A stretch of DNA of 64,000 nt from Nanobdellota archaeon. Lineage in GTDB: Archaea; Nanobdellota; Nanobdellia; Pacearchaeales; GW2011-AR1. The notes beneath the pieces were generated by a model. It was not told where the DNA came from, ran no database searches, and saw only the letters and a list, made by a program, of their open reading frames with translations. The translations under genes and the position numbers were made by a program. The stretch's first letter is position 1. Each line of letters opens with the position of its first letter. Shown here in pieces: positions 7,673-33,051 of this stretch. The stretch lies in contig JBBSXJ010000001.1 of NCBI GenBank assembly GCA_038045825.1, positions 6,281 through 70,280 on the forward strand, read 5' to 3'.

Positions 7673-8044
7673 ATGAATATCAAACAAATAAAAGAAGTAA
7701 TGAAAAAATATGGAAAAGCTTGGATTAATCAAGATACTGATTTATTAATATCTTGCTTTTCTGAGAAAGGAATTTATCTTGAGAGCCCTATATCAAAACC
7801 ATACAAAGGACATAAAGAGATTGCTAACTTCTGGAACAATACTGTTGTTAAAGAAACTGAAAGCATTAAATTTAGATTAAAGAAGTGCTATATATCAAAT
7901 GACAAAATAACAGGATTTGCAGAATGGGAGTGTGAAAATCTTTACAAAAAAAAGAAAAATATTATGGCCGGAATTATGTTAATTAATATGAAAGGGGGCA
8001 AAATAACTTACTTAAATGAGTACTGGAACACTAAAATAAAATGA
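7673..8044 (+). CDS. SnoaL/NTF2-like fold small protein
   Basis: 'VMKKYGKAWINQDTDLLISCFSEKGIY...GHKEIANFWN...GFAEWECE' fits the SnoaL-like polyketide cyclase / NTF2 pattern. It is tightly packed between the two platform genes. Confidence 0.5.
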   Translation: MNIKQIKEVMKKYGKAWINQDTDLLISCFSEKGIYLESPISKPYKGHKEIANFWNNTVVKETESIKFRLKKCYISNDKITGFAEWECENLYKKKKNIMAGIMLINMKGGKITYLNEYWNTKIK

Positions 8045-8886
8045 TACTAAAAAAGGCAAACTGGATAGGAATAATATTTGGATTAATATTAATAATAGTT
8101 GATTTTATATTCTTTTTTGGAGAGAATTTATTCTATTTTCTTATTGGAATAGCAATGGCTGTTATTGCGCTTCCTTTTGTTGTAACTACAATATTTGAAA
8201 CTAATCTTGAAAAAGAAAAGAATGAGCAATTCTTGGAATTCGCAAGAGCTCTGGCTGAAAATGTTAAGGGTGGAACCCCTATAGGACAGAGTATCAAAAA
8301 TATGAGAAATAAGAATTTTGGTTCACTTACTGAAAATATAGGAAAACTTGCGAATCAAATGTCTATTGGAATTCCTATGAGCAAAGCGTTGCACACTTTT
8401 GCTGAAGATATTGGAAGCGTTACTGTAAAGAGAGCTATTTCATTGATTAAAGAGGCTGAGATGGCTGGAGGAAAGATAGATGATATTTTAGATTCGGTGG
8501 CCTCATCCATTTATCAAATTGAAAAGTTAAAGAAAGAAAGAAGTGCAGCAATATCTTCTCTTGTTGTACAGGGATACATAATATTCTTTATATTCATAGG
8601 AATAATGCTTGTAATGCAGTTCAAGATAATTCCTTTAACTGATCAAGTAAATAGTGTTGGGGGTCTTGAAGGGATAGGTGGGGGGATAGGAGCTTCCAGC
8701 GGAGAAGGATTCTCAACAGATGATTTATCAAGGCCATTATTATGGATGCTTCTTCTTCAAGGATTATTTAGCGGACTTGCAATAGGAAAGTTATCTGAAG
8801 GGTCTGTAAAGGCAGGAGTCAAACATTCTTTTGTTATGGTAATTGCTGCTTTCTTGATATCTACAGGTGCCAAGTTATTCCTTTAG
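8041..8886 (+). CDS. FlaJ/TadC/PilC-family pilus platform membrane protein, second half
   Basis: It has two N-terminal TM helices, a cytoplasmic T2SS-F-like helical domain ('FLEFARALAENVKGGTPIGQSI...') and C-terminal TM helices. There is an ATGA overlap with the upstream gene. Confidence 0.65.
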   Translation: MILKKANWIGIIFGLILIIVDFIFFFGENLFYFLIGIAMAVIALPFVVTTIFETNLEKEKNEQFLEFARALAENVKGGTPIGQSIKNMRNKNFGSLTENIGKLANQMSIGIPMSKALHTFAEDIGSVTVKRAISLIKEAEMAGGKIDDILDSVASSIYQIEKLKKERSAAISSLVVQGYIIFFIFIGIMLVMQFKIIPLTDQVNSVGGLEGIGGGIGASSGEGFSTDDLSRPLLWMLLLQGLFSGLAIGKLSEGSVKAGVKHSFVMVIAAFLISTGAKLFL

Positions 8887-8890
8887 TTCA

Positions 8891-8902
8891 CGGCCCGCGC
8901 AT
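8891..8902 (+). repeat. 12-bp GC-rich core repeat copy 1 (cggcccgcgcat), candidate recombination (att) core
   Basis: Exact 12-mer, beginning 5 nt after the stop of the platform gene. Together with the preceding A it makes a 13-mer identical to copy 3. Confidence 0.85.
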
Positions 8903-8976
8903 TTGGAAGTTTTGTCTAATTTCTCGAGCAATCAATTTAAATCTAAATATAAAGAATGTTTCTTGATTTGATATCT

Positions 8977-10073
8977 TTAAAATATAGTAGTAAATTCTAT
9001 TCTCCCATTTACATCTTCAGGATTTTCAAATGGAGTGTCTATTATGAATCTTAAATTTCCTTTTTCCCCTATTGGAGCTTTTAATTGTAGCCCCGCTCCA
9101 TAATTTTCAGAACCATGTAAGTCAAAGCTGGCAGTTATTAATGGAGTAACTTCTGCTTTGCCGATTCTTGTTACATATGCAAGTGTTCCATTTGCAGATC
9201 TAGTGTTTGTTTTAGAGTCATTTGTAGCAGATAATATTCCCACAAGCCCGTTATCTACTCGATCATTAAACGGAACTCCTTCAATTGGCGCCCTTCCAAA
9301 TAGGTCTGTAAAAAGATCATTTGTAAACATATCGGCATTATTAGAGGTTCTGCCAACTGCCCAATCGGCATAGCCCCTCTTGATTCCTCCAAACATTAAT
9401 TGGCCAAAAGCATTAGTTTCTCCATCTTCTGAAAAATCAACTTTTCCAAGAGTTCTATAACCTAATTTTACCTCTGGTCCAGCATGATTTGCAAAGAAAC
9501 TTATAGAATACTTATTTTCTAATTCAGAATTTGTGAATGCAAGTCCTAACCCTGCACGATCTTCATTTGAGAAACTATGTATCACATTTCCAAGAAACTG
9601 TGTTTTTTTGCCCCATTAAGGTCTAAGTAGTCAAATCCTATTCCTATTTGGCTATCACTAAACTCTTTTGTAAGGCCAAATCCAGTTCTTAGAGAGTCCT
9701 CTGTTTTGCTTAATGATGCATCAAGAACTTTATCTCCGATTAATGTTTTTGATTCTAATCCTACTCCGTTCTCAACCGTTGATCCGGTTAGCCATAGAGT
9801 GTTAAGATCGTTCGGTTTAAAACGGGCTCCGAATACATAGTCTGTATTTCCTGATATATCATCAATTCTTCTAACTTTAAAATCTTCATCCATAATTCCA
9901 TTTCCAAATCCTAAATCATAAGTAATCTTATCTGGGCTGAATATGTAGGCTGAACGTATTCCATTGGGCTTTTCATTTTCAACGTTTTGTGCTTGTACGT
10001 AATCTCCGATTAATGTTGCTCCTGCAAGCAAGCTAGTTCTTGCAATCTTTCCTAATTGTTCTTTTAAACTCAT
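8977..10073 (-). pseudogene. outer-membrane beta-barrel-like protein, frameshifted (two ORFs 9582-10073 and 8977-9585)
   Basis: The N-terminal signal-like sequence is 'LLAGATLIGDYVQAQ'. The body is rich in G/N/D/T with an alternating pattern and ends '...NGRIEFTTIF' with a terminal Phe. The two ORFs join in frame if the A7 run (rc of 9603-9609) is read as A8, giving '...GAKKTQFLGNVIHSFSNED...'. Confidence 0.5.
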
Positions 10074-10281
10074 CTTAATAACTGCTAATTTAGCCTATTT
10101 TTAAATCTTTCTATCTTGTTACCCCTATGTAGTTAATAAGTAATTAAAAGGTTCTTAATTTTTATCGGGAATATTGTCACCATTTGGTGGTCGATCATCC
10201 TTAAAAATAAAACCAATCTTATATAATTAACAAAATAAGAGCACACGATGCTCACCAGATTAGACAAAACTTGCTACTGCC

Positions 10282-10293
10282 CGGCCCGCGCAT
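10282..10293 (+). repeat. 12-bp core repeat copy 2 (cggcccgcgcat)
   Basis: Exact 12-mer at the junction between the two cassettes. Confidence 0.85.
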
Positions 10294-10374
10294 CCATACA
10301 TCATGTCCATTTTCATGGGGAGTGGCCTAATTGCACAACCTAAGATTTAAATAAGCTAAGTTCACTGCCTAATT

Positions 10375-10692
10375 ATGGTACAAGAGACTATAGGTAGACC
10401 AGAAATGATTTCAGCTATAACTGGAATACCAGTAGATGAATTGAATGAAGGTATGCGATGGTTAACAGTAGCCAATGGTCCACTTTCAGGATCTGTAAAA
10501 GTTACCCCTAATCAAATGAGTATGGTATATGCTGCTACAAGAAAGTTTGTAGCATTACAAATACTCTGTCCTGATGCTGTAGATTATTACAAACCAGCTT
10601 TGGATGCTATAGAATCCGCTTATAGAATAGATCATCATATTGGTTTTGTAAAAGGACTTGAACACCTTATGGCTCTGATGTCATGGGAATAA
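10375..10692 (+). CDS. hypothetical protein (cassette cargo)
   Basis: A 105-aa ORF with no motif I recognise. Confidence 0.45.
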   Translation: MVQETIGRPEMISAITGIPVDELNEGMRWLTVANGPLSGSVKVTPNQMSMVYAATRKFVALQILCPDAVDYYKPALDAIESAYRIDHHIGFVKGLEHLMALMSWE

Positions 10693-10820
10693 TTTCTTTT
10701 TAGAGAATTCATATCAAATAGTCTAATTTTTAATAAACTCCATGGAATTAGGCAACTAACCCTATGATTTATTTATCCTTAAGTCAAAAGTGTTAAAAAC
10801 TTCTAATATTCATTAATTTT

Positions 10821-11108
10821 ATGAAAAAATCACTGCAAGAAATCAAAGAAAAGATAGCCCCATTGCTTAAAGAGAATAATGTAACTAAAGCAGGGATATT
10901 TGGTAGCTATGCACGTGGAGAGGAGAAAAATGGAAGTGATGTAGACATATTAATAGAAATGAATGATGGAGGAGGATTTGACTCAATAATAAATCTTAAG
11001 ATATTGCTTGAGAAAATCCTTAAAAGAAAAGTAGATTTAGTTGAATATTGTACTATAAGAAAAGAGCTAAAAAGATCTATTCTGAGGGATGAAATAAGAG
11101 TTATATGA
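10821..11108 (+). CDS. minimal nucleotidyltransferase (MNT) antitoxin-type protein
   Basis: 'GIFGSYARGEEKNGSDVDILIE' is the GS...DxD motif of Pol-beta-fold NTases. It overlaps the downstream HEPN gene by 4 nt. Confidence 0.85.
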   Translation: MKKSLQEIKEKIAPLLKENNVTKAGIFGSYARGEEKNGSDVDILIEMNDGGGFDSIINLKILLEKILKRKVDLVEYCTIRKELKRSILRDEIRVI

Positions 11109-11440
11109 AAAGAGATTATAAACTGTACTTGCAAGATATAAAGGAAAGTATAAATCAAATCGAGAGTTATTTAAAAGGAATTTCACAAGTTGAATTTAAT
11201 AAAAATCTTATGCTTCAAGACGCAGTCATAAGAAGGCTGGAGATAATTGGAGAAGCAAGTAAAAATATTCCTGGTTCGTTAAAAGAAAAAAATAGACATG
11301 TGCCTTGGATTAGAATGCAAAACTATAGAGACTTTATCATCCACTCTTATTTTGAGGCTAGCTTAAGTAGAATTTGGGTTGTTGCGACAAAGGAAATAAA
11401 AGAAATTAAGGAAGCAATGAAAAATATTATTTTGGTTTAA
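11105..11440 (+). CDS. HEPN-domain (DUF86) toxin-type protein
   Basis: It has the R-x4-H HEPN motif 'RDFIIHSYF' and forms a typical MNT-HEPN operon. Confidence 0.8.
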   Translation: MKRDYKLYLQDIKESINQIESYLKGISQVEFNKNLMLQDAVIRRLEIIGEASKNIPGSLKEKNRHVPWIRMQNYRDFIIHSYFEASLSRIWVVATKEIKEIKEAMKNIILV

Positions 11441-11478
11441 TTCCGCTTCACGCTCTTTGGACACTAGAGCCATGTGTA

Positions 11479-11490
11479 CGGCCCGCGCAT
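11479..11490 (+). repeat. 12-bp core repeat copy 3 (cggcccgcgcat)
   Basis: Exact 12-mer, ending 4 nt before the 3' end of the minus-strand methyltransferase gene. Confidence 0.85.
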
Positions 11491-11494
11491 ATCA

Positions 11495-12268
11495 TTAAAT
11501 CTTTTTAATCAAATAAAATAACTCTTGATTTGTTCTTGTTATTTTATAATCATATTTTAGGGCTTTGAGTATATTTTCAAACCAACGCCTGTATGGGCTA
11601 TTCATCTTTTTTCCAGTTAATGTGCGGGTTGCGAAACTAACAATGAAATGTTTTGCATTTATTTTCTTTAAGAGGTCTCTTGTTATTCCTATCCTTCTAT
11701 CTCCTAGAATGTCTAGTACTTTGAAAATAATACAAAGGTCTACATCAGGGAAAGTTGGTTCTTCTCTAATATCTTTATGATGGACATCCCCATGAATTCC
11801 ATTAACTTTGAAAAATTCATTTACTATTTCAAGGTCGTATTCATTAATATCATAAGCATGATACTTTATGCCAGGTTTTGCTAGGGCTATTGGATTTATA
11901 CCACAACCAAGATCAAGAATACTTTGCGGATTTAGAGCTCTAATCATATTTCTTACAAGAGGATAATCATCTACTCTTTCTCTTGTTGAAGAATGCTGTA
12001 ACAATAATTCATTGATATCTCCGCTTTTGATAAATTCACTTCTATTTTTGATATTTGACTTAGAAGCATACTGTCCAGTATATTTTCTTAGCTCCTCTCT
12101 TACTTCTTTTATTATAATTTTTTGAGCCTTTTCTGAATGGGTGTCTTTTATCTTATTTTTTAACAGATAACTTTCTAGAGTTGATATTACAAGAGTATCT
12201 GGAAGACTTTTTAGTTCAAATTTCTCCTTTATTTTTCTGACCAGTTTATCCATTGATCTGTAGAGCAA
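11495..12268 (-). CDS. 16S rRNA (guanine1405-N7)-methyltransferase-like protein (ArmA/Rmt/FmrO family)
   Basis: The motif order matches my recollection of ArmA/Rmt enzymes: 'LLLQHSSTRERV', SAM motif 'ILDLGCGINPIAL', 'IKYHAYDINEYDLEI', 'FIVSFATRTLTGKK' and a C-terminal 'QELFYLI'. Confidence 0.7.
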   Translation of the reverse strand: MLYRSMDKLVRKIKEKFELKSLPDTLVISTLESYLLKNKIKDTHSEKAQKIIIKEVREELRKYTGQYASKSNIKNRSEFIKSGDINELLLQHSSTRERVDDYPLVRNMIRALNPQSILDLGCGINPIALAKPGIKYHAYDINEYDLEIVNEFFKVNGIHGDVHHKDIREEPTFPDVDLCIIFKVLDILGDRRIGITRDLLKKINAKHFIVSFATRTLTGKKMNSPYRRWFENILKALKYDYKITRTNQELFYLIKKI

Positions 12269-13925: not shown

Positions 13926-16760
13926 ATGGTAAATATTAAAAAAATAAATGAATACACTTGGGAAATTCCGAAAGAAAATGGCATGAAAGTACCAGGCAGA
14001 ATTTTTGCCTCTGAAAAATTATTTGAAAAAATAAAGAATGACTTAACTTTTGAACAAATAAAAAATGTAGCTAAACTTCCAGGAATAATTGGATACTCTC
14101 TTGCCATGAGTGATGCCCATCAGGCCTATGGGATGTGTGTCGGAGGGGTAGCTGCTTTTGATTCTAAGAAAGGAATTATAAGTCCCGGAGCTGTTGGTTT
14201 TGATATTAATTGCTTAACTGGAAATAGTTCAATAGTTACTGAATTTGGAGGATCTATGAAAATTGAAAACTTTGAAAAATTACAATCTGAACTAGAGATA
14301 GATGATAATGGAAGAAAAATAAAAAAGATTGTTTTCTCAAGCCAGCTATCTACTCTCAACAATCAAAATAAATCTATGGAGGGAAAACCAGTTAACCTTA
14401 TTATGTCAAGAAATGCTGAAAAAGTCTCCGAGATAACTCTTGAATCTGGATTAAAAATAAAGACGACTGAAGAACACCCGTTTTTGACTAAAGAAGGTAT
14501 GCAAAAAATTTCTGAAATTAGTCTAGGGAAACTTGTAGGCGTGGACTTATTTGAAGGAATTGAATTAAACGAAGAAATAGATGAAAAAGAAGCCATTATT
14601 GCAAAGATAATGGGTTACTTGTTTGGAGATGGGAATTTCTCCAGATTAAAGACAGGACTAAGAGCCTCTGCTTATGGAAAAAAAGAAGATTTAGAGGAAA
14701 TTAAAAAAGATTTAGAGAGAATACGGGTTAAATCATATATTTATTCTAGAGAAAGAGACCACTCTATAAATACAAGATATGGAAATGTTAAGTTTAGAAA
14801 TATAGAATATTCATTACATATAAACTCTCAAGAATTCAATAGACTGCTAGAACAAAAAGGACTTATTTTAGGAAATAAAACAAGGCAAGAAGTAAGAATA
14901 CCTCAATGGATTAAAGAGTCTAAACCTATAATAAAAAGATTATTTTTAGCTGGATTTTTTGGAGCTGAAATGTCTACTCCTAAAACATTATCTAAAACTT
15001 GCTTTTTCTGCCCAACAATAGATCAAAATAAAATTGAATCTCTATCTCAAAATGCTCGCGACTTTTTGATAGATCTTTCTTTGCTTTTAGAAGAATTTGG
15101 AATAAATAATACTAAAATAAGCGAGATTGATGATTTCCATAATAAATATGGAGAAAAAACAAAGAGGTTTAGGTTATTTGTAAAGGGAGAAGAAGATATG
15201 CTCAAGCTATGGAGAAACATAGGTTTTGAATACAACCAAAAAAGAAAAAATATGGCTAATATAGCTTCACTTTACATCTTACTTAAAAAACAAGAAAACA
15301 ATAAAAGACTGTATTTGGCTCGAAAGATTAAAGAATATAAAAATAGAGGATTCAAACTGAAAGAAGTAAAAAAGATATTATTTAAAGAAATTAATGAAAG
15401 ATTCATTGAAAGACATTATTATGAAGATGCAGCTCAAAGAATTAAATTAGATTTTATTTCTTTTAAGGATTTTAAAAGGCTTAAACTGGAAGAATTAAAT
15501 AATTATGGAACAATATTTGATAAAATAGCAGAAAAAAAAGAAATAATTGGCAATCACAGAGTATATGATTTTAACGTTCAAGACAATCATAATTTCATAG
15601 CAAATGGGTTTGTTGTTTCGAATTGTGGCGTCCGATTATTAATATCTAATTTAGATAAAAAACAATTCTTGTCCAAAAGAAAAGATATTTTAAAAGAAAT
15701 TTATAATGCTGTCCCTTCTGGGGTTGGCAAAAAAAGTAAATTCAACCTCAACAATAAAGAAATTGATAACGTTTTAACTAATGGTGTTGGGTGGGCTATT
15801 GATAAAGGATATGGAGAGGCAGAAGATAAAGAATTATGCGAAGACAATGGTCAAATAATTGGAGCTGACTCAAAGAAAATATCTGCAAAAGCCCGTGGAC
15901 GAGGAATGAATCAACTTGGTACATTAGGAGCAGGAAACCATTTTCTAGAGATTGCAGAAGTTGAAAGCATTTATGATGAAAGAGTTGCTAAAATATTTGG
16001 CATTAAGAATGTTGGACAAATCACAGTCATGATTCATTCGGGCAGCAGAGGCGTTGGACACCAAGTTGCATCAGATTATATGAAAAAAATGGAAGAAGAA
16101 TATGGTTACAAACATTTACCTGATCGACAACTTGCTTATGCTAAGATAGACTCTGTATTAGGAAAAGACTATCTTGCTGCGATGGCAGGCGCTGCTAACT
16201 TTGGATTTACGAATAGACATTTAATTATGCATCAAGTCAGGGAGTCATTTGGAAAACACTTTCCTAAATCTGAATTAAACTTAGTTTATGACCTTGCACA
16301 CAACATTGCAAAATTTGAGGACCACACAGTTGATGGTAAAAAAATGAAATTATTAATTCATAGAAAAGGTGCAACACGTTCATTTGGTCCTGGAAGAAAA
16401 GAAATTCCCTTAAAATATCGCAAAGTCGGATGTCCTATATTTATTCCAGGGAGCATGGGGACATATTCTTACGTTTTAGTTGGAACAAAAAAAGCTGAAG
16501 AATTGACATTTGGCTCAACTGCGCACGGGGCTGGAAGAATATTATCTAGAAGCGAAGCTTCTCGAACTATCACTCCTCAAAATCTTGCTAAAGAGATGAA
16601 TGACAAAGACATTATCCTAGAATCTGCAAGTATGAAAGGTGCAGTGGACGAAGCACCCGCCGCATACAAAGATGTTAATGAAGTTGTTCGCGTAAGTGAT
16701 GAACTTGGTATAGGTAAGATGGTTGCTAGGCTTAAACCACTCGGGGTTGTTAAAGGATAA
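13926..16760 (+). CDS. rtcB: RNA-splicing ligase RtcB, interrupted by an intein
   Basis: Exteins: '...GAVGFDIN' + 'CGVRLL...'. RtcB motifs 'GAGNHFLE', 'HSGSRGVGH' and 'HGAGR' are present. Confidence 0.92.
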   Translation: MVNIKKINEYTWEIPKENGMKVPGRIFASEKLFEKIKNDLTFEQIKNVAKLPGIIGYSLAMSDAHQAYGMCVGGVAAFDSKKGIISPGAVGFDINCLTGNSSIVTEFGGSMKIENFEKLQSELEIDDNGRKIKKIVFSSQLSTLNNQNKSMEGKPVNLIMSRNAEKVSEITLESGLKIKTTEEHPFLTKEGMQKISEISLGKLVGVDLFEGIELNEEIDEKEAIIAKIMGYLFGDGNFSRLKTGLRASAYGKKEDLEEIKKDLERIRVKSYIYSRERDHSINTRYGNVKFRNIEYSLHINSQEFNRLLEQKGLILGNKTRQEVRIPQWIKESKPIIKRLFLAGFFGAEMSTPKTLSKTCFFCPTIDQNKIESLSQNARDFLIDLSLLLEEFGINNTKISEIDDFHNKYGEKTKRFRLFVKGEEDMLKLWRNIGFEYNQKRKNMANIASLYILLKKQENNKRLYLARKIKEYKNRGFKLKEVKKILFKEINERFIERHYYEDAAQRIKLDFISFKDFKRLKLEELNNYGTIFDKIAEKKEIIGNHRVYDFNVQDNHNFIANGFVVSNCGVRLLISNLDKKQFLSKRKDILKEIYNAVPSGVGKKSKFNLNNKEIDNVLTNGVGWAIDKGYGEAEDKELCEDNGQIIGADSKKISAKARGRGMNQLGTLGAGNHFLEIAEVESIYDERVAKIFGIKNVGQITVMIHSGSRGVGHQVASDYMKKMEEEYGYKHLPDRQLAYAKIDSVLGKDYLAAMAGAANFGFTNRHLIMHQVRESFGKHFPKSELNLVYDLAHNIAKFEDHTVDGKKMKLLIHRKGATRSFGPGRKEIPLKYRKVGCPIFIPGSMGTYSYVLVGTKKAEELTFGSTAHGAGRILSRSEASRTITPQNLAKEMNDKDIILESASMKGAVDEAPAAYKDVNEVVRVSDELGIGKMVARLKPLGVVKG
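14211..15623 (+). mobile_element. RtcB intein with LAGLIDADG homing-endonuclease domain (471 aa)
   Basis: It starts at Cys ('CLTGNSS'), has block B 'TTEEHPF', LAGLIDADG motifs 'IMGYLFGDGNF' and 'LFLAGFFGAEMS', and ends 'NGFVVSN' followed by the +1 Cys of 'CGVRLL'. Confidence 0.9.
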
Positions 16761-29625: not shown

Positions 29626-32600
29626 CTACTTCAATCTAATTGTTTCCAAATTTCTAGGAACTATTGTTTCTATACCATACTGGCGGTAAATACTTGATGC
29701 GAAATCCAAACAACGAGATTGTTCTCCGTGAGAAATTATTACTTTCTTAGGTTTAGGAGTCATTCTTCCTATAAACTGCATTAACTCTCCTCTTCCAGAG
29801 TGAGCTGAAAGACCAGACATTGTTTCAACTTGCATGTTTACATTTATTGTCTCTCCTCCAAAGTTTTCATCTATTCTTACAACTTTATTTCCTTCTGAGA
29901 CTTGTCTTCCTAAGGTATTAGGTCCTTGGTAACATCCGAAAATTATTAGGTTCTTTTCATTTTCAGCAAATTCTTTGAAATATTCAACTGAAGCTCCTCC
30001 AGCAAGCATTCCGTTTGTTGCAATAACTATGCATGGGCCTCCTTCAAAGACTTCTTTTCTTTCTGTAGGAGAACCTACTCTTTTGAATAATGAAGAAGTA
30101 AATGGATTTTCATCATTGAAGATTTTATTTCTTATATTACTTCCAAGAAATTCTGGGTAAGCTGTGTGAATTGCAGTTATATCCCATAACATACCATCAA
30201 GATAAACTGGAATTTGGGGAAGCTTCCCTGTGCGAATTGCATCTTCCACTCTTAGCAATGTTTCTTGAGCGTGACCTAAACCCAATTCAGGAAGAAGTAT
30301 CTTTCCCCCTCTCTTTATAGTATCATTAACTAGAATGCAGAATTTCTCATCAACTTCTGATAATGGGGGCTGAATCTGGTCTTTGCTTCCATAAGTTGAT
30401 TCTACCATTATTGATTCAACTCTCGGATAGAAGTTTACAGCGGGATCGAGAAGTCTTGTTTTTCTATAATTTGAGTCTCCAGTATAAACAAAATTATGTA
30501 ATCCATTTCCTATATTTACATGAGTTATAGCTGATCCAAGAACGTGTCCGGCATTATAAAATGTAATCCTAATATCTGGAGTTATATCAAAGACTTCTCC
30601 ATAATTAAGACATATTGAGTGTCTAACCATCTCTTTTACATCATCTGCTCTGTATATTGGAACTTCTGCTTTTTTGTAATGTACACTTACAAGATCAAGA
30701 GCAAGAAGAGCTGAGATATCTCTTGTTGGAGGAGTCATATATACAGGACCTTTGTACCCCATCTTGTATAGATAAGGAATTAATCCAGAATTGTGAACCA
30801 CTATATTTCCGGCTATAAAGTTGTGGCTTTCTACTTCTATATCTACTAAATAAGGATATGGATTTTCTTTTGAATCTATGGTTGTTATTTTTTCCCAGAT
30901 AACCTCTAATTTAAGAATATTTTCTAGAAGAGATATTTTATTATTAATGGCAGAAATTGTAGATGTCATCTTGTCTTTCATAAAAGATGAAAGGATGTGT
31001 GAAATCGAAGCCGCAAATTCTTTAGAAATTCTGTTTTCTTCTATTTGTTGTATTTGAGAAACTTTTAAACCAGTAGAAAGGCTTATTTCAGTTCTGGTAA
31101 GACTTAATAGCTGCCTAAGAACATACATATCATTTAGATCTATTCTTTTATTAATTTCAGTTATTCTATTCTTTAATACATATAGAAGTGTTTCTGCAGT
31201 CTTTCTTGTTGCATATCCTTCTTTTCTTCTAAATAAGTCTAAAAGACTCATAGGTAAAATATTACTTAAATTTGGACTATCATGTACTTTTCCCAACATG
31301 CCCGCTACTTTTAGTATTTCTCGCAAGTCATTTGAAGTTAAAGGCACTAAATCTTGTTTATTAAATTCATGATTATTAAACTTGGAAACTTCACTCATCA
31401 GATTGTCCATTTTATATTTTATTGAGAAGCCAACTTTTTCTTTGAACCTAGACAATCCGTAAATTGAAGATATACTTATGTCGTTGCCTGAAATATGTGA
31501 AGGGATATTGTTTAAAGAGAATAGATGCTGTAAATCTTTAATCATTTCTTTGCTGAATGAAGTTATTTTAATTCTGTTTGAAACTGTACCTTCTGCATCA
31601 GCAAAACCCCTTAAAAATGCTAGTTGTACTTCGTTTCCTGAATTAATTATCTTTTCAGGTATCCTAATATCTCTTGTTTTAGAGAAAAATTCTGGAAAGT
31701 TATTTTCCAAGAATCTAATTATTTTTATATTGTTTATTTCAAGAATATGTGCATTTTTTGTTTTATCTGAGTGATGCCTTATTATTGCCTCGGAATTAAA
31801 TAACTCTTTGATTATTTCTTTATGATATTCTAAAATTGGGATATGTGAATCTGTTAACCTTAAAGAATAAGGTGTTGATTTATGCCCATCACCCATATAA
31901 TAACCAATAAATTCTGCTAGATTTGGAGTCAGCTCATGAGGAAGATGTGTTTTGCCTTCCCCTTTTTTATTATATTGGACTTTAGTGATTAGTGGAATTA
32001 GCTCTCCTAATTTTTGATCTTTATGGAGTAAATTTGATGGCAAGAGCATATGTTCTGTTAATTCTTGGGCCTCAGTTTCTTTGATTTCTAGATTTTTAAC
32101 TGTAAAGAATCTATGGTTTGGAGAAGACTCTATTGTTGAATAAGGCGTTTTAATTGTTAGTACTCTTTTATGCCCATTAGTTTGAGTTTTTTCAGTTACT
32201 TTAGATGATATATATTTACCAGATTTCCAATCTAATGAAATTACGTTTTCCCCTACTTTAATATCATCTATTTTCTTGTAACCTTTTTCTGTTAGAACAG
32301 GATATTGTGGAGGCAGACAATGGTCTAAATGAGCGTGTGAAAGAACTATTGCATCAATACTTGAAATGTCTCCTATTTCAGAAACATCTAAGTAAGGGAA
32401 TCTTTCTGGACCAGATATAACTCCAACGTTTATTCCACAGTCAAAAACTATCTTTGACTTTGGAGTCTGCAATAAAAGACATGAACGGCCTACTTGTCTT
32501 CCAGACCCAAGATAAGTAAGTCTAACCCACATATCCATCTTTTCAGGATTCCAGTTCTCATAAATCTTCTTTCCAATTTCATTCAAGAATTTCTTTCTGT

Positions 32601-33051
32601 AAGAGTTATTTGCATAAAGGACATCTCTGATTTTTTCAGTTATTTTTGAGTGGATCGCAGGACTTCTTTGAGTTTGGATTGTCCACATCGTAGAATTCTT
32701 TATTTCTTTTAGAATTGAACCATTCTTTCCTATTACTATTCCAGGGCGCTTTGCCTCCACTATTGCAGTAGATCTAGGAACATCAAATATTATGGATTCT
32801 ATTTCTGCATCTGTTGGAACTAATTCACGAATGGTCTTCTCAGTCTCTTCTTGAGGGGCTAGCATTGAACTATCCGCCCTTAACTCTATTCTTTTTTTTA
32901 CCTTCTTTACTATATCTCTTATTTTATCATCTGAGTTTCTAAAGAATTCTTTGTCTGTTGTGTAAAGAACTATGTTTGCTCCTTCAAAGATTGCCTCGCT
33001 AACTACACCGTTAGGTAATTCGCTTTTTATTGCCTTTAATATTTCACTCAT
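29626..33051 (-). CDS. aCPSF1 (KH-domain beta-CASP metallo-beta-lactamase ribonuclease), interrupted by an intein
   Basis: It has N-terminal KH domains ('GIVIGKNGSILKEIK'). The MBL motif 'LSHAHLDH' resumes after the intein with 'SGLIPYLYKMGYKGPVYMTPP'. It also has a beta-CASP region and a C-terminal 'ISHGE'. Confidence 0.9.
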   Translation of the reverse strand: MSEILKAIKSELPNGVVSEAIFEGANIVLYTTDKEFFRNSDDKIRDIVKKVKKRIELRADSSMLAPQEETEKTIRELVPTDAEIESIIFDVPRSTAIVEAKRPGIVIGKNGSILKEIKNSTMWTIQTQRSPAIHSKITEKIRDVLYANNSYRKKFLNEIGKKIYENWNPEKMDMWVRLTYLGSGRQVGRSCLLLQTPKSKIVFDCGINVGVISGPERFPYLDVSEIGDISSIDAIVLSHAHLDHCLPPQYPVLTEKGYKKIDDIKVGENVISLDWKSGKYISSKVTEKTQTNGHKRVLTIKTPYSTIESSPNHRFFTVKNLEIKETEAQELTEHMLLPSNLLHKDQKLGELIPLITKVQYNKKGEGKTHLPHELTPNLAEFIGYYMGDGHKSTPYSLRLTDSHIPILEYHKEIIKELFNSEAIIRHHSDKTKNAHILEINNIKIIRFLENNFPEFFSKTRDIRIPEKIINSGNEVQLAFLRGFADAEGTVSNRIKITSFSKEMIKDLQHLFSLNNIPSHISGNDISISSIYGLSRFKEKVGFSIKYKMDNLMSEVSKFNNHEFNKQDLVPLTSNDLREILKVAGMLGKVHDSPNLSNILPMSLLDLFRRKEGYATRKTAETLLYVLKNRITEINKRIDLNDMYVLRQLLSLTRTEISLSTGLKVSQIQQIEENRISKEFAASISHILSSFMKDKMTSTISAINNKISLLENILKLEVIWEKITTIDSKENPYPYLVDIEVESHNFIAGNIVVHNSGLIPYLYKMGYKGPVYMTPPTRDISALLALDLVSVHYKKAEVPIYRADDVKEMVRHSICLNYGEVFDITPDIRITFYNAGHVLGSAITHVNIGNGLHNFVYTGDSNYRKTRLLDPAVNFYPRVESIMVESTYGSKDQIQPPLSEVDEKFCILVNDTIKRGGKILLPELGLGHAQETLLRVEDAIRTGKLPQIPVYLDGMLWDITAIHTAYPEFLGSNIRNKIFNDENPFTSSLFKRVGSPTERKEVFEGGPCIVIATNGMLAGGASVEYFKEFAENEKNLIIFGCYQGPNTLGRQVSEGNKVVRIDENFGGETINVNMQVETMSGLSAHSGRGELMQFIGRMTPKPKKVIISHGEQSRCLDFASSIYRQYGIETIVPRNLETIRLK
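30790..32319 (-). mobile_element. aCPSF1 intein with LAGLIDADG homing-endonuclease domain (510 aa)
   Basis: It starts at Cys245 ('CLPPQYPVL'), has block B 'SSPNHRF', LAGLIDADG motifs 'FIGYYMGDGH' and 'LRGFADAEGT', and ends 'GNIVVHN' followed by +1 Ser. I checked the codons on the sequence: tgt at rc 32319-32317, aat at rc 30792-30790. Confidence 0.88.

Follow-up and report, generated by a model that had tools for sequence, protein, structure and literature searches.

The array between the TadC-like and FmrO genes

In the window, i.e. the whole stretch of 64 kb that was analysed, two gene cassettes designated A and B (segments 1 and 2 of the preliminary description) are located between a TadC-like pilus gene and the convergent gene of an FmrO-type rRNA methyltransferase. 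The cassettes are delimited by three exact copies of the 12-mer CGGCCCGCGCAT, all on the plus strand, with core-to-core spacings of 1391 and 1197 bp. The following features were assigned at the locus.

8041..8886, plus strand: left flank, second T2SSF/TadC-like pilus membrane gene (Pfam T2SSF, E=2e-15), with its stop codon 4 nt before core copy 1
8891..8902, plus strand: putative att core copy 1, mimic of the tRNA-Gly(GCC) 3' end, at the chromosome/cassette A junction; exact match
8903..8935, plus strand: left arm of cassette A (P'-type), with one copy of the 14-bp inverted repeat (8907-8920) and arm homology to L162 and L124
8977..10073, minus strand: frameshifted cargo gene of cassette A (ORFs 9582-10073 and 8977-9585) for a strand-rich, signal-peptide-like protein, no function assigned
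10191..10281, plus strand: right arm of cassette A (P-type), with the other copy of the 14-bp inverted repeat (10259-10272) and arm homology to L124
10282..10293, plus strand: putative att core copy 2, at the cassette A/cassette B junction; exact match; L003 and L002 align again from 10283
10294..11478, plus strand: cassette B, with ORF105, a 59-bp element, MNT, HepT and a right arm
10375-10692, in cassette B: ORF105
10717-10775, in cassette B: conserved 59-bp intergenic element
10821-11108, in cassette B: MNT nucleotidyltransferase (Pfam Polbeta/NTP_transf_2)
11105-11440, in cassette B: HepT toxin (Pfam HepT-like)
11479..11490, plus strand: putative att core copy 3, at the cassette B/chromosome junction; exact match; homology of the right flank to L003 from 11477
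11495..12253, minus strand: right flank, FmrO-type rRNA methyltransferase gene (Pfam FmrO, E=4e-19), convergent with the TadC-like gene

Only 0.11 occurrences of the 12-mer were expected by chance and none of 100 shuffles gave three or more, so the preliminary description rightly regarded the three same-strand copies as non-random. It also noted no further copy in the window, and no further match was found in these 64 kb even with two mismatches allowed. This applies to the window only; in the population a second array is present at a tRNA gene. The base directly upstream of the core (base 13) is A, C and A at copies 1, 2 and 3, as had been reported, but it belongs to the upstream sequence and does not mark attL and attR versus an element-element junction.

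The sole gene of cassette A is interrupted by a frameshift in a G4/A7 run, identical in four independent assemblies, and after repair the protein can be aligned over its whole length with an intact homologue of 375 aa, P0003, at 48% identity; the gene is probably a pseudogene. The protein has no Pfam match. A single homologue, on an AT-rich contig, was found among 5.8 billion proteins, and outside its context the protein was met on one 1363-bp contig only, which carries an intact homologue and lacks the core. The AlphaFold model is strand-rich and, with a mean pLDDT of 36, too unreliable for a fold search. The frameshifted minus-strand gene, ORF105 and the MNT/HepT pair thus stand as described before, but the label of a bacterial-type beta-barrel is not borne out by these data.

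The TadC-like gene abuts or overlaps the FmrO gene in most FmrO-carrying related species, the two being directly adjacent in L018, L020, L023, L026, L029, L032, L034 and others, and the core is absent from the 58 related-species loci. Since the flanking genes abut in related species, the site was originally empty, in agreement with the prediction of an empty site in relatives. In another species (L033) this gene junction carries an insertion of 526 bp with a single gene, placed between 12-bp direct repeats of a different sequence, CTTTTCTATAAT.

Among strains the window site is occupied by three different arrays of approximately 2.6, 8 and 18 kb, all of which break at cores. The blastn homology breakpoints of the window versus strain variants fall at 8889, 10283, 11477 and 11490, i.e. 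at the cores, which establishes the segments as discrete repeat-bounded insertions and answers the expectation of alternative occupancy. Cassette B is 99.4% identical from core to core (over 1208 nt) in strains in which it has other neighbours on both sides. Exact-protein look-ups with the 257-aa FmrO ORF gave no match, and those with the 252-aa FmrO protein and the archease returned the window's own strain only.

Each of the 16 junctions examined reads YKGCYCGCGCAT or a degenerate form of it, and none of them contains a GTTRRRY/RYYYAAC pair. Two variants of the core, TGGCT following cassette D and TGGCC following the NYN cassette, go with the upstream cassette, and an NYN cassette ending in the TGGCC-variant core is also found in another species (L147). 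The leftmost junction varies among strains, ACGGCCCGCGCAT versus CTGACTTGCACAT, which one fixed crossover point cannot account for.

The tRNA-Gly gene and the second array

In the 12-mer, 11 nt are those with which the tRNA-Gly(GCC) gene ends, and one base follows: 3 nt come from the T-stem, 7 nt make up the acceptor strand, and the discriminator A and one additional base complete the core. It is neither a novel chromosomal core nor an integron-like one. Integrative elements that target tRNA genes classically use the 3' end of the gene as their att core.

The tRNA-Gly(GCC) gene of L096 carries a 34-nt intron at position 37/38 and was identified by ARAGORN with the intron search; default ARAGORN misses the intron-containing gene and the intron option is required. 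The Rfam tRNA model matched it at full length (15122-15227 of L096, minus strand, 52.9 bits). The gene ends in ...TTCAATTCCCGGCCCGCGCA, followed by T. The tRNA-end core lies at 15121 and further cores are located downstream at 11648, 10872 and 10409 (TGGCTCGCGCAT), forming the second array. Proteins of the window locus and of the tRNA-Gly locus have the common NCBI MAG locus-tag prefix AABX10, and the tRNA-Gly array belongs to the same population as the window, on another contig. Cassette B is linked to the flank of the tRNA-Gly array by contig L094, a k=31 Logan contig that is possibly chimeric at a 44-nt repeat.

The two arrays also have a cassette in common. The 463-bp cassette D is present in L003 (between TadC and FmrO) and in L096 (at tRNA-Gly) with 96.5% identity over 507 nt; in both arrays it is accompanied by the same core variant and the same downstream 32-nt arm, and its upstream neighbours differ. 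Among AT-rich loci with this tRNA end, 10 of 52 contain extra core copies downstream. Neither tRNA-Gly nor the core was found near the 126-aa flank gene in a related species, a result that is uninformative on an empty tRNA site.

The tRNA and Rfam scans of the window gave no matches. The window array itself sits away from any tRNA gene and hence represents a secondary site.

Cassette arms and a putative divergent integrase family

The perfect 14-bp inverted repeat claimed for cassette A was confirmed, together with its offsets of 4 nt and 9 nt from the core on the respective sides. It exceeds all of 500 shuffles and forms part of a 40-nt inverted repeat that is 78% complementary. This site architecture points to a tyrosine recombinase, as had been proposed. 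The repeat of cassette B, already described as weak, is not significant (p about 0.36). Altogether, of 14 cassettes tested only 5 had significant terminal inverted repeats, namely A, E, the element of 15.6 kb and those of L124 and L142; their offsets from the core are variable (4 and 9, 0 and 5, 3 and 0 nt), and some inter-core segments have arms of different types at the two ends. At 10-36 nt from the core there is an enrichment of 5-mers such as TGCGA, ATGCG and TCATG, which is taken as a lead only since the arms are non-independent.

The arms of cassette A recur in other Pacearchaeota. For the core with the left arm, identity reaches 95% (40 nt) with the interval between tRNA-Gly and the integrase gene in L162 and 89% (45 nt) with L124. 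For the right arm with the core it is 87% (103 nt), the counterpart being the right end of the 4.4-kb cassette of L124. This L124 cassette is integrase-less and shares both arms with cassette A; its cargo is unrelated.

In L162, L159 and L126, which derive from other Pacearchaeota, genes of an integrase-like family of 385-400 aa begin 88-140 nt downstream of tRNA-Gly, and in L139 and L158 a member of the family is found within about 6 kb of tRNA-Gly. The family has no match in Pfam, Phage_integrase included. Its profile matched P. abyssi XerA (4a8e) with E=0.0034 and NCBIfam recomb_XerA_Arch matched four of five members (E=1.5e-11), these XerA-type matches being weak and far under the curated cut-offs. 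The integron integrase model TIGR02249 reached 13 bits against a cut-off of 265 (best E=5e-4). The alignment contains the motifs GIRAPTE (with the aligned Arg I), YDFRH and HYY, the last of which is assumed to hold the putative catalytic Tyr. YxxR in place of HxxR is the signature of pNOB8-type integrases (PMC8371274). Judged from these matches and motifs, the family appears to consist of divergent tyrosine integrases with a pNOB8-like YxxR motif.

The preliminary description had noted that no recombinase is encoded nearby, and our searches agree. No integrase family was present among the Pfam matches of window genes, whether precomputed or from direct scans, and tblastn with the tRNA-Gly-linked family gave no match in the window. 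Pfam and PHROGs searches with 17 proteins of the L002 and L003 arrays revealed no recombinase and almost no matches. The window, the three arrays at its site and the tRNA-Gly array, as far as it was fetched, yielded no member of this integrase family or of any Pfam-recognised one. The IMG/VR scans gave no match with the integrase alignment or with the 1138-aa and 585-aa proteins of the 15.6-kb element, and only chance matches, in GC-rich phages, with the arm sequence.

An SSV-type split integrase was considered, since on the minus strand the core reads ATGCGCGGGCCG and opens a 110-aa DUF7678 ORF. It was rejected because the Pfam match of this ORF begins at residue 32 and because in the reconstructed circular junction of the 15.6-kb element stop codons occur in all frames and no frame crosses the junction.

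Origin of the cassettes and relation to known systems

Very probably, the cassettes are tandem integrase-less derivatives of integrative elements targeting tRNA-Gly, which reside at a secondary site and were probably moved in trans. The 12-mers are best explained as the att repeats of a family of such elements in Pacearchaeota (DPANN archaea). This interpretation presupposes a tRNA gene ending in CGGCCCGCGCA in the genome of the organism; the identity between core and tRNA, limited to 11-12 nt, counts against it, as do the weak profile matches of the integrase family, the small share of cassettes with significant inverted repeats and the strain-dependent leftmost junction. A circular element would hold the core between two arms, and a tyrosine integrase would recombine this core with the end of the tRNA gene or with any existing copy of the core. 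Repeated integrations would then lead to a tandem array with each segment bounded by cores; the serial site-specific integration at one core envisaged before is retained. Cassette A would have kept both arms of a family that includes an integrase-bearing element, and the window segments would occupy a non-tRNA secondary site between the two convergent genes. Strand exchange most likely occurs within the invariant CGCGCA(T) of the core, at an exact position that we infer; the core variants that accompany the upstream cassette speak for this placement. Since no integrase was found in the fetched sequence of the window's organism, we infer mobilisation in trans; it may be the L162-type integrase family that moves these particular cassettes, and the window cassettes may still be mobile. 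No excised circle or attP junction was seen and no circular contig was found. Taken together, this is an ordinary mechanism in a little-studied archaeal group, with elements of a known type.

It seems unlikely that the cassettes are instead dead relics at a tRNA-derived core, with the differences between strains and arrays arising by homologous recombination or gene conversion at cores and arms and no integrase acting in trans. The failure to find an integrase in any array of the window population, the frameshift in cassette A and the many cassettes without significant inverted repeats are in line with this explanation, and cassette D, given its identical core variant and 32-nt arm in both arrays, could have been moved within a larger block. 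However, the upstream neighbours of cassette D differ between the arrays, the breakpoints fall inside 12 nt, which is too short for efficient homologous recombination, and NYN cassettes with the same TGG-variant core end are present in another species. Moreover, the arms of cassette A are 87-95% conserved although L124 and L162 carry unrelated cargo, which suggests selection on cis-acting ends.

The remaining explanations involve different machinery. Transposon- or MITE-like elements with terminal inverted repeats and a preferred 12-13-bp target duplicated on insertion would account for the five cassettes with significant repeats and for the L033 insertion between another 12-bp direct repeat. 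We consider them highly improbable, because a transposase is absent, the inverted repeats are subterminal with varying offsets, and the supposed duplication is the same at every junction, equals the tRNA end heading the primary array and, unlike a duplication made by insertion, varies in its 5' part with the upstream cassette. There is equally little chance that these are IMEX-type elements using host XerA at a dif-like site near the replication terminus, even though they are tandem, integrase-less and placed between convergent genes, and the best database matches of the integrase family are archaeal XerA proteins. The dif site has 28 bp, with two 11-nt inverted arms and a 6-nt spacer (PMC8371274); no such 11-6-11 inverted repeat was recognised by eye around the core or the predicted empty site, and the likeness to IMEX-type integration suggested before was dropped. 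The core is also part of a tRNA and present at at least two genomic loci, whereas dif is a single copy near the terminus, and the cumulative GC skew has no turning point at 9-11 kb of the window.

An integron-like CALIN, its cassettes captured as folded single-stranded attC by an IntI-type integrase, can be given next to no credence, for all that small cassettes rich in toxin-antitoxin and orphan genes, the absence of an integrase nearby and the faint match of the integrase family to the integron integrase model, far below its cut-off, recall one. Integrons and CALINs have been reported in Nanoarchaeota, which speaks for this explanation, but the archaeal integrons so far described use canonical attC, which speaks against it (PMC9668308). 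The boundaries here are CGGCCCGCGCAT and not GTTRRRY, the RYYYAAC partner is absent, and the crossover separates the two inverted-repeat arms, between which there are 1.3-15 kb in the array, whereas an attC hairpin is found whole at the 3' end of a cassette; on these grounds the integron-like interpretation raised in the preliminary description is not supported. In addition, the core coincides with the 3' end of a tRNA gene, where the array begins, cassette genes are in both orientations, and no IntI with the integron-specific additional domain is encoded in the window.

DPANN archaea have tiny genomes in which gene gain and loss are little understood. As this locus shows, a Pacearchaeota population, at least one, has two chromosomal platforms at which small gene modules are exchanged at a tRNA-derived site. 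Related elements of neighbouring species carry defence and metabolic genes. A bolder proposal, which we regard as possible but doubtful, is that Pacearchaeota have a dedicated cassette-exchange system, integron-like in its working and built of different parts: a minimal 11-nt tRNA-Gly core with arms of ~30-90 nt and arbitrary cargo (toxin-antitoxin pairs, orphan genes, a shikimate-pathway operon and restriction-modification systems among it), served by a divergent YxxR integrase in trans, with shuttling between tRNA-Gly and secondary platforms within and between co-occurring species. If true, gene flux in these reduced genomes would have one of its main routes here. As the integrase family is missed by the Pfam integrase model, surveys relying on Pfam would call such arrays integrase-less or take them for new. 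Short GC-rich direct repeats in AT-rich archaeal DNA should be compared first with the 3' ends of tRNA genes, intron-containing ones included.

Among known systems, SSV-type (type I) elements also target tRNA genes and are flanked by tRNA-derived repeats after integration. Their integrase gene contains attP and is split when the element integrates, whereas here no ORF spans the reconstructed circular junction and the integrase genes of L162, L159 and L126 are intact. Integrons and CALINs (PMC9668308) are alike in function only: they, too, are arrays of small cassettes that can be exchanged and are rich in toxin-antitoxin genes, with a recombinase gene located elsewhere. The present arrays have neither attC hairpins nor R'/R'' boxes, a tRNA end serves as their core, crossover takes place between the arms and not at the base of a folded stem, and the cassettes are in both orientations with their own intergenic regions.

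The tycheposons and tRNA-seeded islands of Prochlorococcus (10.1101/2020.12.28.424599) come closer. They share serial integration at one tRNA att site, with older elements pushed inward, partial tRNA repeats and degenerate remnants scattered in the island, metabolic and defence cargo, and a streamlined host genome. They belong, however, to another domain of life and another integrase lineage, and tRNA att sites are typically ~40 nt according to the same study, as they are in tycheposons. The hallmark replication modules of tycheposons were not seen here, and the second platform is away from a tRNA gene.

The present elements differ from those of pNOB8 type (type II) in their short core of 11-12 nt, in an integrase so divergent that Pfam Phage_integrase does not recognise it, in their DPANN host and in the window copies, which are integrase-less and placed at a non-tRNA secondary site. 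They agree in the following features: the direct repeats equal the 3' part of the tRNA gene, the tRNA is regenerated at one end, the putative tyrosine recombinase is of the YxxR kind (YDFRH here), and in L162, L159 and L126 an intact integrase gene adjoins the tRNA gene.

Cassettes at the TadC-FmrO junction

The 12-mer CGGCCCGCGCAT occurs at positions 8891, 10282 and 11479 of the window, with all three copies on the plus strand, and no further copy was found in the window even when two mismatches were permitted, in full agreement with the preliminary description. Chance matches to the 12-mer in dinucleotide-preserving shuffles averaged 0.11, and at least three were obtained in 0 of 100 shuffles. 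The core-to-core distances are 1391 and 1197 bp, and the two segments, cassette A (core 8891 to core 10282) and cassette B (core 10282 to core 11479), have the following genes in and around them:

Left of cassette A: T2SSF/TadC-like gene
Cassette A, minus strand: frameshifted gene
Cassette B: ORF of 105 aa (ORF105) and MNT/HepT pair
Right of cassette B: FmrO-type methyltransferase gene

This gene content, including the pilus and methyltransferase flanks, is as it had been read from the sequence alone. The host is an archaeon with a GC content of about 32 %, recognized by its intein-bearing RtcB gene, archease and FlaI-type ATPase, and the nearest genomes carry the labels Pacearchaeota, Woesearchaeota or Nanoarchaeota. 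LAGLIDADG-domain inteins are present in two housekeeping genes of the window, those of the RtcB ligase (944 aa) and a beta-CASP/KH RNase (1141 aa), at 13926-16760 and 29626-33051.

The same locus was retrieved from several Hainich groundwater assemblies through exact-protein look-ups. One recovered strain was identical to the window sequence, and in two others a MazE + NYN segment replaces cassette A and is followed by the same cassette B. Downstream of cassette B, one of the two (L003) carries three more segments and the other (L002/L076) a 15.6-kb element, in each case followed by the same methyltransferase gene. Homology between the strains (blastn) breaks at window positions 8889, 10283-11490 and 11477, which are the three cores, and this confirms the proposal that the segments are discrete insertions. 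The further boundaries in L003 consist of CGGCCCGCGCAT or of variants with one to two mismatches (TGGCCCGCGCAT, TTGCCCGCGCAT, TGGCTCGCGCAT).

The flank junction was also compared in 58 related species retrieved with the TadC-like protein. In most of those bearing FmrO, this gene is directly convergent with or overlaps the TadC-like gene, and no GC-rich core was found at these directly joined sites. The ancestral state is therefore an empty site, and the core has no long history in this intergenic region. Both the empty site in related genomes and the alternative occupancy sought on the basis of the preliminary description were thus found, and the segments are true cassettes. The junction predicted for an empty window locus is ...cctttagttcaCGGCCCGCGCATatcattaaatc... 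and that predicted for a circle of cassette A is ...attagacaaaacttgctactgccCGGCCCGCGCATttggaagttttgtctaat....

Other insertions were observed at the same junction. In a related species (L033, 10848-11400) a 526-bp insertion with one signal-peptide gene is bounded by direct repeats of 12 bp with the native target sequence, CTTTTCTATAAT, and unrelated insertions of 0.36-2.0 kb are present in other species (L021, L022, L024 and L025). The convergent TadC/FmrO pair is thus a hot spot for insertions in general, not for the tRNA-Gly elements alone. Within the pilus operon, a SnoaL-like gene lies at 7673-8044 between the two T2SSF/TadC-like genes. At most of the loci in related species, and at all of the closest ones, just a few nt separate the end of the first TadC-like gene from the start of the second, and tblastn matches to the SnoaL protein were confined to this species; the gene looks like a separate single-gene insertion.

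The frameshift in the cassette A gene lies in a GGGGCAAAAAAA run (9585-9600, minus strand) and is the same in 4 independent assemblies; either the gene is a fixed pseudogene or the site is prone to slippage. In cassette B, ORF105 (10375-10692) is similar to a single repeat unit of the 1138-aa protein encoded by the 15.6-kb element (L076, 13033-16449), a protein made of units of about 86 aa (ITGIPVDELNEGMRW vs LTGIPIDELNGKWNN is one example of the similarity); no family matches were obtained for either protein. A 59-bp intergenic element, AGTCTAATTTTTAATAAACTCCATGGAATTAGGCAACTAACCCTATGATTT, occupies positions 10717-10775 in the gap between ORF105 and MNT. It has no second copy in the window. 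In the first cassette of the other strains it reappears between MazE and NYN (93 % identity), and cassettes of other species (L147/L152, L163) contain it with 82-86 % identity. It could serve as promoter or terminator or mark the boundary of an internal module.

The core and the tRNA-Gly gene

The MNT protein is identical across all strains, and its look-up gave the short contig L094, in which cassette B with its downstream core is followed by a gene for a 126-aa Cys-rich protein and by glmS instead of the methyltransferase gene. Look-up of the 126-aa protein uncovered a second locus, present in the same samples and represented by the 225-kb contig L096, whose sample also yields a window-type contig at similar coverage. 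The two loci, physically linked in L094, also have in common the NCBI MAG locus-tag prefix of their proteins, AABX10, and these two observations tie the tRNA-Gly locus to the population of the window.

The core is present in L096 in four copies on one strand. The copy at 15121 forms the end of a gene reading GCGCGGGTAGTATAGTGGTTAGTATACGACGTTGCCA[34-nt intron]ACGTTGTGGCCCGGGTTCAATTCCCGGCCCGCGCA, identified by ARAGORN with intron search as tRNA-Gly(GCC) with the intron at 37/38 (the search without introns missed it) and matched in full length by the Rfam tRNA model (52.9 bits vs a gathering score of 29). The 12-mer is therefore composed of three T-stem bases, the 3' acceptor strand (seven bases), the discriminator A and one base beyond it.

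The two arrays have content in common, since the 463-bp segment encoding a 104-aa protein (cassette D) is found both in the L003 array and in the tRNA-Gly array of L096, with 96.5 % identity over 507 nt and different upstream neighbours. Past its last core, the tRNA-Gly array continues with 32 nt whose sequence is also that of the left arm in cassettes C and E and in the 15.6-kb element. The 126-aa gene nevertheless has its stop codon inside these 32 nt, which are either native flank or a truncated element arm.

In both arrays cassette D is followed by the core variant TGGCT, and behind the NYN cassette the variant is TGGCC, in three strains as well as in another species. The sequence downstream of each core varies independently of these variants. 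The first five bases of the 12-mer therefore move with the upstream segment, which most likely places strand exchange in the invariant CGCGCA(T) of the core. The overlap region of tyrosine recombinases is typically 6-8 bp. The leftmost junction reads ACGGCCCGCGCAT in the window strain vs CTGACTTGCACAT in the other strains, in a flank otherwise 99 % identical. The CTGACTTGCACAT junction looks like a pseudo-attB hybrid, and one single crossover point fails to account for both forms.

Cassette arms and a putative integrase family

A perfect 14-bp terminal inverted repeat had been noticed in cassette A, and it is indeed present (8907-8920 / 10259-10272), embedded in a 40-nt inverted repeat with 78 % complementarity. 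Significant terminal inverted repeats were detected in 5 of 14 segments (A, E, the 15.6-kb element and the cassettes of L124 and L142); that of cassette B was not significant. The short GC-containing words TGCGA, ATGCG and TCATG are enriched across the arms, 10-36 nt from the core, but they are only a lead because the arms are kin to each other.

Metagenome contigs were scanned with the 22-nt tRNA end, which gave 52 AT-rich loci, ten of them with extra downstream cores at distances of 82 to 6307 nt. At one of these ten (L147/L152) an NYN cassette ends with ...cccagtgTGGCCCGCGCAT, as does the NYN segment that other strains carry at the window's site. Very short units, 82-136 nt from the tRNA end to the second copy of a longer repeat, TTCCCGGCCCGCGCA, were observed in L141 and L119, where the tRNA is followed by GGAATTGAAC, which is complementary to the T-loop region. 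Such units may represent a different att variant or else minimal remnants.

Clustering of the ORFs downstream of the tRNA-Gly genes revealed one family of five sequences (385-400 aa), which begins 88-140 nt past the tRNA in L162, L159 and L126; in L139 and L158 the tRNA is no more than about 6 kb away. Pfam gave no integrase match for this family. The five-sequence profile matched XerA of Pyrococcus abyssi (4a8e) with E=0.0034, in an alignment spanning the first catalytic arginine (GIRAPTE vs GLRVSE) and the box-II motif (YDFRH vs HQLRH), and the NCBIfam archaeal XerA model matched four of the five members (up to E=1.5e-11), with scores well under the curated cut-off. The YxxR motif, with Tyr replacing the first His, is the signature named in a review for pNOB8-type archaeal integrases (PMC8371274). 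The integrase-bearing elements carry restriction-modification systems. No copy of the family was detected by tblastn in the window, L003, L076, L095 or L096, and no integrase of the window's population was found in the fetched sequence.

The arms are common to elements with and without an integrase. The 28 nt from the tRNA end to the integrase region in L162, ttggaagttttgtctaatttcgtgagca, resemble the start of cassette A, ttggaagttttgtctaatttctcgagca, and core plus left arm are 95 % identical over 40 nt. In the Hainich H41 contig L124 (4461 bp), a 4.4-kb integrase-less segment directly 3' of tRNA-Gly matches cassette A in the left arm (89 % over 45 nt) and in the right arm plus core (87 % over 103 nt), with unrelated cargo. 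Its genes, assigned by eye, are those of shikimate dehydrogenase, 3-dehydroquinate synthase II, an ADH synthase-like aldolase, an O-methyltransferase and a TrmB-type regulator, and appear to form an archaeal shikimate-pathway set. Cassette E of L003 and the 15.6-kb element of L076 likewise have arms in common and different cargo. Conserved ends with variable cargo would be expected of cis-acting recombination sites.

Comparison with known systems

The integron or CALIN array, to which the cassettes had been likened, is excluded on the tests available: archaeal integrons so far described use canonical attC (PMC9668308), whereas GTTRRRY/RYYYAAC boxes are lacking here, arms lie on both sides of the crossover and the core is a tRNA end. 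Integration at dif, as in IMEX elements, is excluded as well, with no 11-6-11 dif-type structure evident by eye around the core and the core present at more than one locus. A constant repeat combined with variable inverted-repeat offsets does not fit transposition with target duplication, and the intact integrase genes do not fit an SSV-type split integrase.

The repeat is an att core derived from a tRNA and no novel kind of recombination site. Points of moderate interest are the very short core, the colonization of a non-tRNA secondary site, the exchange of cassettes between two platforms, the DPANN host and an integrase family without a match to Pfam's integrase model. The closest matches are the pNOB8-type tRNA-targeting integrative elements, and in serial integration there is a functional likeness to the tRNA-seeded islands of Prochlorococcus, in which partial tRNAs and degenerate remnants pile up (10.1101/2020.12.28.424599).
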